Notes: a model not told the origin generated them from the sequence alone. Shown: positions 1,132-11,559, numbered from the stretch's first letter. The stretch: DNA of 12,694 bases from a virus (IMGVR_UViG_2529293249_000016:1-12694), one strand, 5' to 3'. Numbers and translations: made by a program.

Positions 1132-2193
1132 TTAATATTCAAAATTATTTTCTTCAATAGAGAACTCAATCCCTCGGGATAACTTATCAATATTCACATC
1201 AAATGCGATATCTGTTAATTCACCATCCTCGATTTCATACATAACTTCAATTTCAATATCGAAACTAATCTCTTGAACTTCAGTTCGTGTGGTTGTCTCC
1301 ATTGGAATCATTACTTTATCTTCGCTATCCCAATACCCATTATTAAAGTCTGGACCAGAAACAGTAACTTCAAAATCTACAGAAACAGAGAAGGTCGCTA
1401 GACAATAATTATTGTCAATCTTAATTATTGATGGTTCAAAGTCATCAATATTGACGACTTCAAATGAATCCAATTCAGCGTCTTCCCAAGTTGAAACGTT
1501 ATATCCATCGGCATCATTGAGTTGGGCAATTACGTCCGCTCTTATGTCTTCACGTTTGCTTTCGATAAACTGCATCAATTTATTACTTAATTCGTTTGTA
1601 TGCGTATTGTATTCACCTAGAAACTTATCAAGTGAATCAATTTGATGAAGATTGTTTTTACCATCACAATAATTTTTTAAGTCACTATCCTCAGAAATGA
1701 TATACACATCTTCATCATTAACAAATCGCTCTACCGCAGCTAAATTGATTGCATCAGGAAACTCACTTTTTTTCTTATTTTGCCCAAATGGTGGTTCTTT
1801 GCCAAAGTATTTATCTAAAACCTCATTAAGATCTATCACTTCTATTGTAGCTAATTTGGCGTGACATCCTTTCAAAAAATCATCAAAAACTTTTTGTGCT
1901 GCTTCGTGAATTTCATGTTCGTTAAATTGCTGAAAAAAACCATGGAGCGGTCCATTATCAATACTATTCAAAAGCCTAGCTTTTCTTTGTACTGTGTTTA
2001 TAGCCTGCAGAGCATCCTTTATTGATTCCTCTATTTTACCTTTTACTTCTCTCTCTACAACTGTAGTTGTAATTAAGACTAAATCACCTTTCGCACATAA
2101 TTCATGGAAAGCTTTAAATGCTACCCCCTCAAAATGAAGACCAGCCTTTACGTACGTTTGTGTGTCAATAAATACCTTATTTGTTTTAAGCAT
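1132..2193 (-). CDS. AT-rich cargo protein of 353 aa with an N-terminal PIN-like domain (VFIDTQ start) and a very acidic C-terminal half; candidate anti-phage or toxin nuclease
   Basis: ATG at 2193 with AGGA about 7 nt upstream. N-terminus MLKTNKVFIDTQTYVKAGLHFEGVAFKAFHELCAKGDLVLITTTVVEREV resembles PIN-like nuclease folds (DUF4935-type); the C-terminus is D/E-rich. Strongly AT-rich and convergent with the portal gene, lying between portal and cos. Confidence 0.7.
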   Translation of the reverse strand: MLKTNKVFIDTQTYVKAGLHFEGVAFKAFHELCAKGDLVLITTTVVEREVKGKIEESIKDALQAINTVQRKARLLNSIDNGPLHGFFQQFNEHEIHEAAQKVFDDFLKGCHAKLATIEVIDLNEVLDKYFGKEPPFGQNKKKSEFPDAINLAAVERFVNDEDVYIISEDSDLKNYCDGKNNLHQIDSLDKFLGEYNTHTNELSNKLMQFIESKREDIRADVIAQLNDADGYNVSTWEDAELDSFEVVNIDDFEPSIIKIDNNYCLATFSVSVDFEVTVSGPDFNNGYWDSEDKVMIPMETTTRTEVQEISFDIEIEVMYEIEDGELTDIAFDVNIDKLSRGIEFSIEENNFEY

Positions 2194-2680: not shown

Positions 2681-3106
2681 ATGAAAAGCTTTTACGTATT
2701 AATTTTAATTCTGGTTGCAAGCTTTGTTAGCGTCCCAGTTCAGGCGGTAACAGCTAAAAACTATGAGAAAGGAACTAAAGCTCAACAGAAATCAATATCT
2801 TACCTTTCATGTGCATTCTATGGCAGTAGCACACAATTAGATCCTAGCTACACGGAGCAAGTACCTACAGCCGATATCAAGATATTACAGAAAGCAGCTT
2901 ACCACGCTTACAACGATGCGCTCTCATACTTTGGCTATGAGGAACCAGATCACGAACAACGCATAATTGATTATGCTGAATTTGTGGCGTCGCAAGAAGC
3001 TGTGTTATGGGATAAGCCGGGAATGAATGGAAAGCAGGTAACACTAATTGCTCGTTCTCTCTACAATGAGAGTAACTGTAACTTGTTACTGGACTCAATT
3101 AAGTAG
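2681..3106 (+). CDS. Small secreted or periplasmic protein (141 aa) with an N-terminal signal peptide; AT-rich moron of unknown function
   Basis: ATG at 2681 with GAGG 5-8 nt upstream. N-terminus MKSFYVLILILVASFVSVPVQA-VTAK has a hydrophobic core and an AXA-like cleavage site. AT-rich and located between cos and the tum-like operon. Confidence 0.65.
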   Translation: MKSFYVLILILVASFVSVPVQAVTAKNYEKGTKAQQKSISYLSCAFYGSSTQLDPSYTEQVPTADIKILQKAAYHAYNDALSYFGYEEPDHEQRIIDYAEFVASQEAVLWDKPGMNGKQVTLIARSLYNESNCNLLLDSIK

Positions 3107-3265
3107 GAAAAAGATGGTATTTTGCCCGTAGTTTCAACCTTAATCTCCGAACCTGTCGCAGAACGGGCGTTCACTCATCAAATAAACGCCACACCTAACG
3201 CCTCACTGTACTCGTTGTTCAACCTTGCTGACGCCAGAACCAAGTTCAGACGCCAGCAACTTTTC

Positions 3266-3499
3266 TTAATGCAGCCAGCTGTCGTCTTCCCACACCTTCT
3301 GCATAATCTTCATCACTTGTTTTCTTTCTTCGTCCAGTTGCAGTCCGGTCAGTTCCACACCGTTAGAGCTACCTTTGCGGATGCGAATTACCATTTTGGG
3401 ATACAGGGGGCGCAGATTGCGGTAAAGCTCGGATTCAAGGGCGTCCAGGGTAGACTGGCTAATCTTCTGCTCTTTATCGATCATTATTTCAATGCGCAT
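3266..3499 (-). CDS. DinI-family protein (77 aa), SOS-regulated; corresponds to the DinI-like C-terminal part of 186 Tum
   Basis: Internal ATG at 3499 gives MRIEIMIDKEQ...WEDDSWLH, which follows the DinI pattern (MRIEV...WE..D.W). GAGGTG lies about 8 nt upstream and overlaps the stop of the preceding ORF. Confidence 0.7.
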   Translation of the reverse strand: MRIEIMIDKEQKISQSTLDALESELYRNLRPLYPKMVIRIRKGSSNGVELTGLQLDEERKQVMKIMQKVWEDDSWLH

Positions 3500-3509
3500 A
3501 AAGGTCACC

Positions 3510-3698
3510 TCAGCTGATGACATCCATTGAGCGGTTGTATTCGTGGGTTCTGATTTTTGCCATGAGTTCATCAGTCAATTCAGAAACCCACTGCAGAGCC
3601 AGCCCCTTCTCTTCATCACTACACTCACTAGCCGCTACAAGCTTAAGAAAAAAATCAATGCGCTGGAGCTTCAAAGACTCCAAAAAATAGTCCTGCAT
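3510..3698 (-). CDS. Small protein (62 aa), first gene after the LexA box; candidate Tum-like antirepressor N-terminal module
   Basis: ATG at 3698 with a perfect AGGAGG 5-6 nt upstream. It lies about 43 bp downstream of a CTGT-N8-ACAG LexA box and directly upstream of the DinI-like ORF in a different frame. Confidence 0.55.
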   Translation of the reverse strand: MQDYFLESLKLQRIDFFLKLVAASECSDEEKGLALQWVSELTDELMAKIRTHEYNRSMDVIS

Positions 3699-3740
3699 CT
3701 TTCCTCCTATGACACCAAAGTAATACTGTATATATAACCA

Positions 3741-3756
3741 CTGTTTATATTTACAG
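3741..3756 (-). promoter_or_regulatory. LexA (SOS) box CTGT-N8-ACAG in the promoter region of the tum-like/DinI-like operon
   Basis: + strand ctgtttatatttacag (3741-3756) fits the LexA consensus CTGT-(AT-rich)8-ACAG; an adjacent half-site TACTGTATATATAA sits at 3724-3737. A candidate TTTACA -35 lies upstream on the - strand. Confidence 0.6.
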
Positions 3757-3771
3757 TATATAATAATCTTA

Positions 3772-3800
3772 CTGATGTAAAACGTTTTTTTACGTTCATC
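3772..3800 (-). terminator. Imperfect hairpin downstream of the A gene; possible early-operon terminator
   Basis: CTGATG...CATCAG inverted repeat enclosing AAAACGTTTTTTT, about 50 nt beyond the A stop codon. Weak call. Confidence 0.25.
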
Positions 3801-3850
3801 AGCCTGAAATGCCTGGTATTATTAAGAGCACGAATTGTTAACCCGCGTAA

Positions 3851-6265
3851 TTAATACAGGTTCCGCCACTTATCATCTTCCTGCAAACGCTGGTTCCGAT
3901 AGAAGATACGCAGGCCTGCTCCTGACGGAATACTGCCGCCGCGAAGGAGTAAATCGACCTCTTTCTCGCTGCCATCAAATCCTCTGGACTTCAGTTCATA
4001 GACGAGCTGCTGTCGCTGATGGTCTGTAATTCGCTGTTTGTAGTCTTTACGCCGTTTCGGTTTCACCAGGCGTAACCTTGCAGCCAGTTCCCGGCGCTCT
4101 TTTTTGCTCATACTGTGCAGGTATTCGTGCAACTCCTTGTCATCCATGCGGGTAATGTCCGTTCTGGTATCCCCATCAGCTGATTTGTCTTTCCCTTGTT
4201 GGTTCAAATTTTCAGCAAGGGGACAGTTATTGCCACGAGTCCAAGGGGCGCAAGCGCCCTGGTCGGCTGCCGCCTCCTGAACGTCAACGGCTTTACGAAC
4301 CATTTTCCACTTTACTGCATGAGTGCAGATCTTGCCCTCTGCAATGGGTGACCAGATGCCATAAATACGAATGCCGTGATCGCCATAGGCGGTCGGCTCT
4401 TCGTTGATTTCATAAGCGGTTCTGATGAGGTGATATTTACGGGGAACCAGTACGCCGCCCTGCTTCATGATGTAGGTGGCAAAACAACCAGCATCAGCAG
4501 CAGCCAGAATGGCATCAAGACGCGGGTTATCCAGTACCGGCGCACCTGCTTTTTTGTCACCCTGTTGCCTTGCCGCCTGACCAGCCAGCAAGCGAAGTTC
4601 ACGGTAAGCCTGACGCCCCGGAATACCAAAGAAGCGGAATTGCTGAACACGATGCAGAGACGCCCAGGCATTCACGTATTCAGCGTTATCACGCAGAGAT
4701 TTACCCGTTTCCTTGCTGATCTCGCCAGCCAGACCACGACCGTCAATGTTCTTACTGATATATTTCGCGATGTAGCTTGTCGGCGTTCCTTTGCGCGGGT
4801 TAATCAACTCAGACTTAAAGCGCGGCCCAGTGTTATTGCCCAGCTCCTCGCGGTCTTCACGGATGGCAAATTTACGCAGTAATGCAGTGATGGCACGGCG
4901 GTCTTTTTTGCGCATGAAACACAACAGGTGCCAGTGAACTGTGCCATCATGATGCGGCTCAGCCACCCGCACGCCATACCAGCGCAACCCGGCTTTGTGC
5001 ATCGCCTTACGAAATGCAGCAAACATGCCGACCAGATAATTGCTGCTTTGTCTTACCGTCGCGTTTGTCCAGGTCGGGTTTGGTCTGCCGTTATTTAGCG
5101 TGGAATGGAAACGCGACGGACAGGTGATAGTGTAGAAAACGGCGCAGTCACCGCGCATTTCCGCGATAAGCTCCAGACCTTTAACACAGGCCATCATCTC
5201 ATTGCGGCGATGCGCAGGGTTGCTGCTGCTGGCGTTTACCACATCCTCCATGTCCAGCGTGTCGCCGTCTTCGTTCACCAGTTCATGAGAACGGAAAAAC
5301 TCCAGCGACTTACGGCGCTGCTCACGTTTATGCATCACGGCTTCATAGCTGACATAAGGAGATGCTTTTTTGCTGACCAGGCAAACAGCGCGCAACTGCT
5401 CTTCCCGCCATTCGCAACGCATCTTCCATAATTTCCGATACCACCAGTCGGCGCACAACATACGCGCCAGCGAACCCGGAATGAGTTCATAGGGCACGGG
5501 TTTACGGCGGTTTCTTTTCCGACGGAGTTGCTCAAACGCAGGTGGGATGACATCCAGACGCAGGGTTTCCGCTGCCACCTTTTCCCATGTCTTGCGGATT
5601 TCTTCTGGCTTAACGTCATCGGTGGCATACAAATCACCACAAGCTGCATCAAGGCACATACTCATATGCGCAGCTACCAGGGTGGACAGGCGTTTCACCT
5701 GATCCTGACTCATTTCAGGCAGGATCAGCAGGCCGTCCAGCCCTTCATGGCTTGCCATAAAGCGAAAAGATGCAGATAGCTGACTGTCGCGTACATGCTC
5801 CAGTCGTTCCAGACATGGCTTAATCGTCTCACGTAAATAGCGGGAATAAGCCTTTGGCCTGCCCAGGCTGCTGAAGTATTCAATACGTTGCATCAGCGGC
5901 TTGCTGATATGGGAAGGCTGGGCGTTGACGTCCGCCAGAATGACCATGTCTGAATTAAAACGCTGCTGCTCATGCGCCAGCTTTGCCCGGCTAATGAGCT
6001 TATCCTGCTCCATTTCGCGCTGGACAGGATCACGTGATTCATTAAAGAAATAACGCTCCCAGACCTGATCACTCAGTGCCTCGCGGCGCAACTGTTCCTG
6101 CTCGTTATCGGCAGCGTACAGAGTGATCAGGTTTGAAAGCGTAGAAACCGGCGCAACTTCCGCCGGGTCCAGATAAGGGTTAATGGCCTTTTTCGGGCTG
6201 TTCCATGAGAATGCTGCGGCAGCCTCGTTAAAGCCGCAGCAGTTGTTCATATCGGCATGACTCAT
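3851..6265 (-). CDS. A: Rolling-circle replication initiation endonuclease, P2/186 gpA family (804 aa)
   Basis: Large ORF at the expected position in the early operon. Contains the tyrosine-rich active-site-like motif [11 protein letters not shown] characteristic of A-type initiators. Its ATG (6263-6265) overlaps the Dam stop (ATGA). Confidence 0.85.
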
Positions 6266-9265: not shown

Positions 9266-9862
9266 ATGTCAACATCAAAGTACCCAAGTGAGATCAAAAT
9301 AAATCCCAATAAAGGTGGTAAGGCTGCGATTGAGCGATTAGTCGAAGCCTATGGCTTTACGACACGACAGGCTTTAGCTGATCACTTGGAAGTATCAAAA
9401 AGCACACTAGCGAACAGGTATTTGCGGGATACATTTCCTGCTGACTGGATAATCCAATGTGCTCTTGAAACAGGAACCTCCCTCAAATGGTTAACTACCG
9501 GACAAGGCCTTAAGCAAAGCTCGCTGACAGCAGCTACAGAAGAGCTTGTTAAGTTTCGCCTTGCCGCAGGCAAAATGATTGAAGACGGTTCATATGTCTT
9601 CGATTCATCATTTCTTCCTGCAAACCTTTCATCACCAATTGTTGTTCAGGATGGACTCGTCACATACATTTGTGATCAAAAATTTTCTGAAGTACTTGAT
9701 GGAAACTGGTTAATCAATATCGACGGAACCTATTCCATTCGAAAAATCACAAGGCTTCCTAAAGGAATGATTAAAATTACAACAGCAGAGAATAGCTTTG
9801 AATGTGCATTTTCTGATATTGAAGTGGTTGCTTGTATAAGAAGTACAATAGTCTCGAATTAA
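9266..9862 (+). CDS. cI: Immunity repressor, 186 CI type (198 aa)
   Basis: ATG at 9266. N-terminal HTH region (RLVEAYGFTTRQALADHLEVSKSTLANRY...WLTTGQG) and a size close to the 192 aa of 186 CI. Divergent from the apl/cII operon and upstream of int. Confidence 0.75.
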   Translation: MSTSKYPSEIKINPNKGGKAAIERLVEAYGFTTRQALADHLEVSKSTLANRYLRDTFPADWIIQCALETGTSLKWLTTGQGLKQSSLTAATEELVKFRLAAGKMIEDGSYVFDSSFLPANLSSPIVVQDGLVTYICDQKFSEVLDGNWLINIDGTYSIRKITRLPKGMIKITTAENSFECAFSDIEVVACIRSTIVSN

Positions 9863-9882: not shown

Positions 9883-11559
9883 ATGAATTCATTTGCCATC
9901 GTTATACTCTTATTAGCATTTCTCGCCCCTGTTCTAGCTGTAATATTATTTAAACAAAGTAAAAAACACAAAGCGGCTATAGATAACCTGACAGCTAACA
10001 ACATAGCCCTTTCTAACCAACTGATTGAAAATCAAGAAAAACTAGCACAGACCGCACGAGAATTATCAGAGCTTGAAGGGCGAGCAGCACCATTGTGGCA
10101 ATACGAAGAATTGCACAGCGCAGTAATGGATGCAGAGAATAAGATAAAAAATGCGGACTCAATAGCCAAGCAAAAAATAGATGAAGCCCAAATTAAGGCG
10201 GCTAAAACAGTAAACGAAGCAAATTATCAAGCTCAGATGACAATAAGCAACGCTAATAGCGAAGCTATAGCAATCACCAAAGACGCTCGCGATGCACGCC
10301 TGAAAGCCAAAGAACGTCTTGATAATGCTAATAATAAAGCAAATGAGCTAATCTCAAATGCTAATGACAATGCAGTAAAAATTATTTCTGATGCAGAAGA
10401 AAGAGCAAAGGAGATTGCTGGTTCAGCATATGAAGCTAAAGAGTTTGCAGAAAAATATGAAGCAGTTGCAAAATCAATGAAAAATAAAATTGAAGGTTAT
10501 GGTGATGAATGGATCATCCCTAACCGTAGTGTACTTGATGAGCTGGCAGAAAATTATGAATTTACAGATGCAGGCAAGGAATTACAAAAAGCCAGAGAGT
10601 TAACCAAATCATTAATAAAAACTAATAAAGCTGCTTCGTGTGATTATGTTGAGCAAAACAGGCGTAATACTGCCATAAACTTTGTTTTGGATGCCTTCAA
10701 TGGAAGAGTTGACAGTATTTTATCAAAAGTCAAACACAACAATTTTGGAAAACTTTCCCAAGAAATAAAAGATGCATTTCAACTAGTAAATTACAATGGC
10801 TCTGCCTTTAGGTCCGCAAAAATAAGTGACATCTATCTTCAGGCAAGACTCAACGAGCTAAAATGGGGTGTAGCAGTTAATGAAATTATGCTCGAAGAAA
10901 AAGAAGAGCAAAGAAGGATTAAAGAACAGCTTCGTGAAGAGGAAAGAGCTCGTAGAGAATATGAAAAAGCGATAAAAGAAGCTGAAAAAGAAGAAAAAGC
11001 TATTCAGCAAGCTATAAATAAAGCAACGAAAGAACTTATGCTTGCAAATGAAGAACAACGCTTAGCTTTAGAGCAAAAAATAGCTGAACTACAGTTAAAA
11101 TATGAAGAAGCTGAAGCTAAAAATCAACGAGCTATTTCTATGGCTCAACAAACCAGATCAGGCCACGTCTATATCATTAGTAATATTGGTTCATTTGGCG
11201 AAGATGTATATAAAATTGGAATGACACGCCGCCTTGAACCACTTGATCGTGTTCGTGAACTCGGAGATGCTAGTGTTCCTTTTTCGTTCGATGTTCATGC
11301 GATGATTTATAGTGATGATGCACCATCATTAGAAAACCATCTGCATAAAGTTTTCAACGAAAAGCAGGTCAATAAAATTAACTCACGAAAAGAGTTTTTT
11401 AACGTAAATTTAAAAGAAATCAAATCAGTTATTGAAGACATGAACATCAACGCCCACTGGACAATGTTTGCAGAGGCGAAAGAATATAGAGAGTCTCTAT
11501 CTATTGAGCAGGAGCGCAAAGCAGCCACTTCCGCCAACGATGAACTACATGTTGCTTAG
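9883..11559 (+). CDS. AT-rich cargo protein of 558 aa: N-terminal transmembrane anchor, long K/E/A-rich coiled coil, C-terminal T5orf172 (GIY-YIG-like) domain; candidate anti-phage defence protein
   Basis: ATG at 9883 with AAGGA 7 nt upstream, 20 nt after the cI stop. Hydrophobic N-terminus FAIVILLLAFLAPVLAVILF. C-terminus GHVYIISN...YKIGMTRR...PFSF...RKEFFNV matches the T5orf172/Mug113 pattern. Inserted between cI and int, which are normally adjacent. Confidence 0.75.
   Translation: MNSFAIVILLLAFLAPVLAVILFKQSKKHKAAIDNLTANNIALSNQLIENQEKLAQTARELSELEGRAAPLWQYEELHSAVMDAENKIKNADSIAKQKIDEAQIKAAKTVNEANYQAQMTISNANSEAIAITKDARDARLKAKERLDNANNKANELISNANDNAVKIISDAEERAKEIAGSAYEAKEFAEKYEAVAKSMKNKIEGYGDEWIIPNRSVLDELAENYEFTDAGKELQKARELTKSLIKTNKAASCDYVEQNRRNTAINFVLDAFNGRVDSILSKVKHNNFGKLSQEIKDAFQLVNYNGSAFRSAKISDIYLQARLNELKWGVAVNEIMLEEKEEQRRIKEQLREEERARREYEKAIKEAEKEEKAIQQAINKATKELMLANEEQRLALEQKIAELQLKYEEAEAKNQRAISMAQQTRSGHVYIISNIGSFGEDVYKIGMTRRLEPLDRVRELGDASVPFSFDVHAMIYSDDAPSLENHLHKVFNEKQVNKINSRKEFFNVNLKEIKSVIEDMNINAHWTMFAEAKEYRESLSIEQERKAATSANDELHVA

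Follow-up and report, generated by a model that had tools for sequence, protein, structure and literature searches.

We analyzed a stretch of viral DNA of 12,694 nucleotides (nt) (IMGVR_UViG_2529293249_000016:1-12694; the whole stretch is called the window below) for the function of its segment from 3266 to 3800. The window is a 186/Fels-2-like prophage, and the segment is directly downstream of its P2/186-type replication gene A (gpA, 804 amino acids, or aa; 6265-3851). On the minus strand the order of elements is a −35 hexamer, a −10 hexamer with LexA boxes, an AGGAGG, an open reading frame (ORF) of 62 aa (ORF1), a stop codon overlapping a Shine-Dalgarno sequence, and a 77-aa DinI ORF (ORF2). 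An earlier sequence-only reading of this DNA had listed a LexA box, the AGGAGG ribosome-binding site, the 62-aa ORF, and a DinI-like ORF with its own ribosome-binding site in another frame, and all of these are present. As argued below, the locus is very probably the operon by which a Fels-2/186-like prophage (Peduoviridae) is induced in the SOS response; it has a native two-gene form, in which a LexA-repressed gene for a small antirepressor is followed by a separate DinI-like gene.

Promoter, operator, and the two genes

The putative −35 element of the SOS promoter is TTTACA (3776-3781, minus strand), which was kept in all 10 of the aligned relatives. The putative −10 element, TACTGT (3753-3758, minus strand), is also kept in relatives and is overlapped by the first LexA box; the annotated −10 of the 186 promoter p95 is the same hexamer with the same LexA overlap. 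The spacer between TTTACA and TACTGT is 17 nt, and the annotated p95 has TTCACA, an 18-nt spacer, and TACTGT. We assign a putative promoter upstream of the 62-aa gene (the tumA-like gene) by this likeness to p95.

LexA box 1, CTGTAAATATAAACAG (3741-3756, minus strand), is an exact CTGT-N8-ACAG, the sole exact match in the 12.7-kb window, and is kept in relatives. It matches the 20-mer LexA consensus TACTGTATATATATACAGTA with 3 mismatches, a score reached by none of 200 shuffles. A second, degenerate box, GTGGTTATATATACAG (3726-3741, minus strand), which the sequence-only reading had missed, has one base in common with box 1 and is a candidate site by its sequence. The window contains the double-box pattern CTGT-N8-NCAGTGG-N8-ACAG a single time, at 3726-3756, and none of 200 shuffles contained it. 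Of the 10 Fels-2-type loci that were examined, 9 have the double box; there is a single LexA box in 186, in PSP3, and in the phages that have only TumA (the equivalent of the 62-aa protein).

The same architecture of two overlapping LexA boxes (CTGT-N8-NCAG/TGG-N8-ACAG) occurs at position 5063 of ColE1, upstream of the colicin E1 gene (cea), where box 2 is identical to that of the window at 15 of 16 positions. The ColE1 operator drives a colicin, whereas that of the window would drive a prophage antirepressor. Overlapping SOS boxes of the colicin type bind two LexA dimers, and repression by them is very tight and expression heterogeneous (PMC2994835). LexA presumably occupies both boxes of the window operator as well; if the double box is functional, tighter repression and later induction are predicted than for the 186 p95. 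A literature search with the operator sequence string returned irrelevant papers only.

The tumA-like gene (3510-3698, minus strand, including its TGA stop) begins with the ATG at 3698, 4 nt after its Shine-Dalgarno sequence AGGAGG (3703-3708, minus strand), which is invariant in the aligned relatives. Over its full length the predicted 62-aa protein matches phrog_698 (E = 3.6e-38), a family with 63 positions and no known function. A Pfam search with it found no family, and a sequence search of the PDB found no match at E ≤ 10. An AlphaFold2 model of the protein is a helical hairpin (helices at residues 2-23 and 28-61; predicted local distance difference test score, 88.8). Foldseek comparison of this hairpin to the PDB gave generic two-helix matches only, none of them at E ≤ 0.001, and so the fold is uninformative. 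Two close orthologues, STM2728 of Fels-2 and ECHS_RS04495 of E. coli HS (the tum gene of the P2-like prophage DuoHS), are each identical to ORF1 at 61 of 62 residues. There were 484 database homologues at E ≤ 0.01; among the 120 of these that were listed, 62 aa was by far the commonest length, and none had a DinI domain.

The second gene, the equivalent of tumB, encodes 77 aa (3266-3499, minus strand, including its TAA stop). Its start is the ATG at 3499 (MRIEIM...), 10 nt past the TGA (3512-3510) of ORF1 and in another frame. A Shine-Dalgarno-like GAGGTG (3506-3511, minus strand) overlaps the tumA-like stop codon, and at this site the relatives have GGTGA, AGGGA, GGGGA, or AAGGA, despite spacers that vary from 10 to 13 nt. 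Sequence matches make ORF2 clearly a DinI-family protein. Pfam DinI (PF06183) scored 81.5 bits against a cutoff of 24.2 (E = 5.4e-23), and E. coli DinI (PDB 1GHH) matched residues 1-75 (E = 4e-6). The protein aligns to positions 71 to 148 of the 151-position phrog_189 profile, is 40% identical to residues 71 to 145 of 186 Tum (E = 2e-23), and is identical to Fels-2 STM2726.1 at 76 of 77 residues. Family membership suggests that it may bind RecA filaments and modulate the SOS response, and the 186 record annotates the equivalent product with "modulates SOS induction."

The sequence-only reading was thus right in identifying a LexA-controlled tum-like locus and a DinI-like ORF with its own ribosome-binding site. 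The ATG farther upstream, at 3571, gives a 101-aa ORF (3571-3266), an artifact of a mechanical ORF list that follows a first-ATG rule. We rejected it as a gene because its upstream frame is not kept in relatives with 11- to 13-nt spacers, and because all annotations begin at MRIEIM.

Two genes and the fused Tum of 186

In 186, Tum is a single protein of 146 aa; the sequence-only reading had given it as about 146 aa with a DinI-like C-terminus, which is accurate. It had also noted that the span from 3698 to 3266 is about 144 codons, and the exact figure is 433 nt, or 144.3 codons. This near equality, together with the position of the two ORFs in different frames, could mean that the locus is what remains of one 186-like tum gene (about 146 aa), frameshifted or broken as a pseudogene or by a sequencing error, in which case the prophage would be non-inducible or abnormally inducible. 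The sequence-only reading had left the choice between this and a bipartite antirepressor-plus-DinI arrangement open. The comparative data decide for the bipartite arrangement and refute the frameshift, pseudogene, and sequencing-error alternatives, to which we give almost no probability.

A 661-nt stretch containing the locus was found in 56 phage records, of which the annotated ones show two genes. Of 5426 complete E. coli genomes, 1126 have it, and in six of these, independent of each other, it is 100% identical. The annotation of this stretch in E. coli by the NCBI Prokaryotic Genome Annotation Pipeline is "hypothetical protein" followed by "DinI-like family protein." Homologous prophages thus have the same two-ORF layout with conserved independent starts, the pattern that the sequence-only reading had named as the sign of a native split. 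The ten relatives compared come from Escherichia, Salmonella, Klebsiella, and Yersinia. ORF1 has 62 codons in all ten, and a purine-rich Shine-Dalgarno sequence and the ATG of the DinI gene are kept, while the gap between the stop codon and that ATG is 10, 11, 12, or 13 nt. Because the gap varies, the relative frame of the two ORFs is not conserved, although the stop codon, Shine-Dalgarno sequence, and ATG are.

The ratio of nonsynonymous to synonymous substitution rates (dN/dS), calculated by pairwise Nei-Gojobori comparisons to the window, was 0.06 to 0.08 for ORF1 and 0.05 to 0.10 for ORF2, with dS values for both ORFs of up to about 1 to 2. Judged by these ratios, both ORFs are under strong purifying selection. 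In addition, stand-alone proteins of about 60 to 70 aa dominate the ORF1 family (described below), and the orthologous prophage DuoHS is inducible with mitomycin C by way of its 62-aa gene. The comparative evidence shows a two-gene layout that is native and widespread, and not a broken tum gene; the layout has also been described before.

One record does have irregularities. Escherichia phage 500465-1 (NC_049342.1) has apparent indel errors in both genes of the locus (its positions 701-1231); its ORF1 reads ...EERGWLCSGVSEL..., and its DinI-like ORF stops after MRIE and is annotated in a different, longer frame. These are probably assembly or sequencing artifacts of that record, not of the window.

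Alignment of the two ORFs to 186 Tum gave unequal results: ORF2 corresponds to the C-terminal half at the 40% identity given above, whereas direct BLASTP of ORF1 against 186 Tum found no match, and the relationship of ORF1 to the N-terminal half appeared only with profiles. A hidden Markov model (HMM) of the ORF1 family matched residues 7 to 48 of 186 Tum in the same register (16.8 bits; E = 3e-7 as a single comparison), and none of 5000 shuffles of the Tum N-terminal half reached the real score. hhalign between the two family alignments gave E = 1.6e-4, again in the same register. By BLASTP, ORF1 is connected to a Yersinia phage "tum protein" (E = 9e-8), which in turn matches the N-terminal half of 186 Tum (E = 2e-10). 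A profile search of 1.84 billion representatives returned 156 clusters, with obvious intermediates that bridge both types. By these comparisons, the homology between the 62-aa protein and the N-terminal half of 186 Tum is real, though remote.

The median length of the proteins in the profile search was 66 aa, and only 3 of the 150 listed ran in frame into DinI-like sequence. Because in-frame fusions are so few, stand-alone TumA is the norm and the fused protein of 186 the exception. The window lacks a fused Tum of the 186 type; it has instead the TGA at 3512-3510, the 10-nt spacer, and the change of frame. In 186 the linker ...FAKEGK... is translated from AAGGAGGG, in which the former Shine-Dalgarno sequence is read as the codons KEG. 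This sequence stands ahead of a retained internal GTG, annotated as the start of a DinI-like product of 77 aa. At the level of sequence comparison this suggests that the ancestor of the 186 locus had the two genes apart and that they became fused when a stop codon was lost.

Otherwise the 186 locus resembles that of the window. It has the same place after gene A behind a LexA box, a layout also found in PSP3, Fels-2, and DuoHS, and its LexA box overlaps a TACTGT −10; its Tum is homologous to ORF1 in the N-terminal half and to ORF2 in the C-terminal half; and the phage also has a CI repressor of the same type. It differs from the window in having both parts in one polypeptide, a single LexA box, and orf97 after tum.

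In all, three architectures were observed: fused TumA-DinI (186), separate TumA and DinI (PSP3, Fels-2, DuoHS, and the window), and TumA alone with a LexA box. Loci with a LexA-boxed TumA and no DinI gene are those of Yersinia phage 06.16-2, ESSI2_ev040, Cronobacter phage ESSI-2, and a 63-aa 186-type Tum in Salmonella contigs. The existence of such loci implies that DinI is dispensable for the module.

These loci also bear on the possibility that the antirepressor has two subunits, with the 62-aa and DinI-like proteins acting jointly as a noncovalent equivalent of fused Tum, so that both genes would be needed. The genes are adjacent and probably translationally coupled in all 10 of the Fels-2-type loci examined, their products are one polypeptide in 186, and the DuoHS experiment described below covered the first gene only, all of which would fit joint action. 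However, several P2-like phages have the LexA-boxed TumA homologue and no DinI gene, 186 makes its DinI-like part separately as well, from the internal GTG, as an annotated modulator, and the antirepressor activity of PSP3 has been ascribed to the upstream gene alone, according to the account in PMC3121763. We therefore consider joint action quite unlikely.

Induction and the CI repressor

Experimental evidence comes from DuoHS in E. coli HS. In the Phollow study (PMC12055606), in-frame deletion of tum (ECHS_RS04495) abolished mitomycin C-induced lysis and virion assembly of DuoHS, and lexA(Ind−) likewise abolished both. In E. coli HS this 62-aa gene has gpA on one side and the DinI-like gene (ECHS_RS04500) on the other. 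Gene order (gpA, tum, DinI-like), promoter, and double LexA box are all as in the window; the differences are a CI only 55% identical to that of the window and other cargo downstream of the DinI-like gene. Thus the role of the 62-aa gene in induction has experimental support in a near-identical orthologue, and in the window it is predicted by homology.

The arrangement itself has been described before. Fels-2, with STM2728 and STM2726.1, has the same 10-nt spacer and double LexA box as the window. Its CI is about 42% identical to the window CI (41.5% by tblastn and 43% by alignment), and it has a further gene of 243 aa, STM2726, after the DinI-like gene, where the window has a convergent 141-aa ORF. 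According to Lemire et al. (PMC3121763, citing Bunny et al. 2002), tum is split by a stop codon in both Fels-2 and PSP3, and the upstream gene of PSP3 encodes the antirepressor. The PSP3 record describes tumA as "similar to 5' end 186 tum; UV induction of prophage" (UV, ultraviolet) and tumB as "similar to dinI and 3' end of 186 tum." As in the window, a 60-aa TumA and then a 77-aa DinI-like TumB lie behind a LexA box downstream of gene A. PSP3 TumB closely resembles ORF2, whereas the similarity of PSP3 TumA to ORF1 is marginal (HMM E = 0.003 as a single comparison); unlike the window, PSP3 has one LexA box only, and its two genes are 3 nt apart. No match was returned when the literature was searched for "TumA/TumB." The bipartite antirepressor-plus-DinI arrangement is nevertheless correct and already known from literature and database annotation. 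The locus holds no new biology apart from modest side points, namely the architecture of the operator and how well TumA is conserved in comparison with CI.

A more distant parallel is given by the dinI-gfoA/gftA operons of the Gifsy prophages (Lemire et al. 2011, PMC3121763). As in our model for the window, a small antirepressor and a DinI homologue are repressed by LexA, and the repressor is inactivated without cleavage. In contrast to the window, dinI comes first, the antirepressor and repressor families are unrelated to those considered here, and the phages are lambdoid.

The presumed target of the 62-aa antirepressor is the immunity repressor encoded at 9266-9862 (plus strand), a 186-type CI with an N-terminal Phage_CI_repr domain (PF07022; E = 8e-32) and a C-terminal Phage_CI_C domain (PF16452; E = 3.5e-27). 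Across the two domains, its identity to 186 CI is 32% (E = 3e-34). 186 Tum binds CI and prevents it from binding its operators, without cleavage (Shearwin et al. 1998, as cited in PMC3121763).

By analogy, in an undamaged lysogen host LexA would sit on the double operator over the −10 and start region and keep the operon off. After DNA damage, active RecA would promote LexA self-cleavage, and the operon would be transcribed. Its first product, the 62-aa helical-hairpin TumA/Tum, would then inactivate the 186-type CI without cleaving it, so that the lytic promoter would fire and the prophage would be induced. The second product, the separately translated 77-aa DinI homologue (TumB), would be an accessory that modulates RecA filaments or the SOS response and has no part in antirepression; such a role in the operon is what we infer for it.

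Several observations weigh against parts of this interpretation. The similarity of ORF1 to the N-terminal half of 186 Tum is weak (21% identity, with an hhalign probability of only 50%), and consequently the transfer of mechanism from 186 is something that we infer; direct binding of TumA to CI in the clade of the window, close orthologues included, is likewise proposed from 186. The DuoHS deletion shows that the 62-aa gene is necessary, while sufficiency and mechanism are outside its reach. The assignment of antirepressor activity in PSP3 is a personal communication, given second-hand in the account in PMC3121763. Non-polar deletions of dinI in the Gifsy prophages had no effect (PMC3121763). 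Finally, generic scans of 3050-3900 called no sigma-70 promoter, the tumA-like promoter included, and no canonical terminator after the operon.

Some of these points would also fit a different function, in which the 62-aa protein is required for induction and is not a CI-binding antirepressor; it might, for example, activate the lytic promoter, work via Apl or CII, or have some other host or phage factor as its target. The remote homology to the Tum N-terminal half, the lack of an informative fold match in the structure search, and the reliance on analogy for TumA-CI binding in this clade leave room for it, as do the strongly diverged CI C-terminal domains that accompany near-identical TumA proteins (see below). 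Against it, the protein has its size and a conserved core motif in common with 186 Tum, a published CI binder (Shearwin et al. 1998, via PMC3121763), and the two genes agree in genomic position and in control by LexA; the window CI is of the 186 type; and the N-terminal domain of CI is conserved across the prophages that share TumA. We regard a function of this kind as very unlikely, and antirepression of CI by the 62-aa protein remains the reading that we follow.

These results settle a question of annotation: what is listed between gpA and the DinI-like gene as a small "hypothetical protein" is, as predicted here by homology, TumA, the antirepressor for induction, and not the debris of a broken tum. 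The prophage should therefore be SOS inducible via LexA and not by cleavage of its repressor. About a fifth of the complete E. coli genomes have the gene, as do many prophages of Salmonella and Klebsiella. Although the fused Tum of 186 is the textbook case, it is the less usual one, and the DinI-like gene is a passenger that the module can do without.

TumA and CI are conserved to very different degrees. Across a set of prophages (loci L018 and L021-L024), TumA is 98 to 100% identical, while the CI proteins are only 36 to 59% identical overall. In these CI proteins the N-terminal DNA-binding domain is conserved (median identity, 70%), and the linker and the C-terminal oligomerization domain have diverged (medians of 31 to 35%, with 35% for the C-terminal domain); some have an 18-aa insertion. 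We had considered calling these prophages "heteroimmune," and rejected the label because the recognition-helix region of CI is conserved. A tentative idea that would fit this pattern, and that we rate as less likely than not, is that TumA has a broad specificity, recognizing the conserved N-terminal domain of CI, and could thus cross-induce different P2-like prophages in trans within one cell. In the same reading, the colicin-type double LexA operator would confine its expression to a small part of the cells and to an SOS response that is severe or prolonged. Neither broad-specificity TumA nor gating by a double operator was found stated in the literature searched.

Prophage context and public records

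A hairpin directly 3' of the DinI-like stop codon (3225-3259, minus strand) is a possible weak or partial terminator. RNA folding gives it a stem of 11 + 4 base pairs; it has no U-run, it was not called by the terminator scan, and the z-score of the folded region is only −1.6. It occupies the place of the partial terminator t95a in 186.

Some public records of the tumA-like gene can be corrected, since it is often unnamed, misnamed, or extended upstream through its own promoter. The longer entries among the ORF1 homologues are such gene-caller extensions. In many database entries the 62-aa ORF is made to begin too far upstream, so that it takes in its own promoter, LexA boxes, and ribosome-binding site, and versions of 84 to 109 aa ending ...IGGKMQDY... 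result. In some sources the 62-aa protein is named "levan regulatory protein," a name for which we found no support. Annotation artifacts of these two kinds were noted among the 120 listed homologues, in Klebsiella phage ST11-OXA245phi3.1, and in cluster P0018.

The other genes of the window are those of a prophage of this kind. Besides the portal gene, a variable cargo region, the DinI-like gene, the 62-aa gene, and gpA, there are genes for a Dam-type methylase, a TraR/DksA zinc-finger protein, CII (PF06892), an Apl/Cox-like ORF, the CI repressor, a PD-Lambda-1 defense protein, and an integrase. The defense gene, a 558-aa ORF between cI and int (9883-11559, plus strand), matches the PD-Lambda-1 anti-phage defense protein (PADLOC; E = 2.8e-120) and has DUF4041 and T5orf172/MUG113 domains; it is defense cargo in a hotspot of the immunity region.

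The variable region between the DinI-like and portal genes contains a gene for a 353-aa PIN_12-domain protein (1132-2193, minus strand), which had no PADLOC match. In the same region, downstream of the DinI-like gene, is the convergent 141-aa ORF (2681-3106, plus strand), which has an apparent signal peptide and no Pfam match. Relatives have other cargo in this region, e.g., a Ymh-domain protein, a TIR-domain protein, or STM2726.

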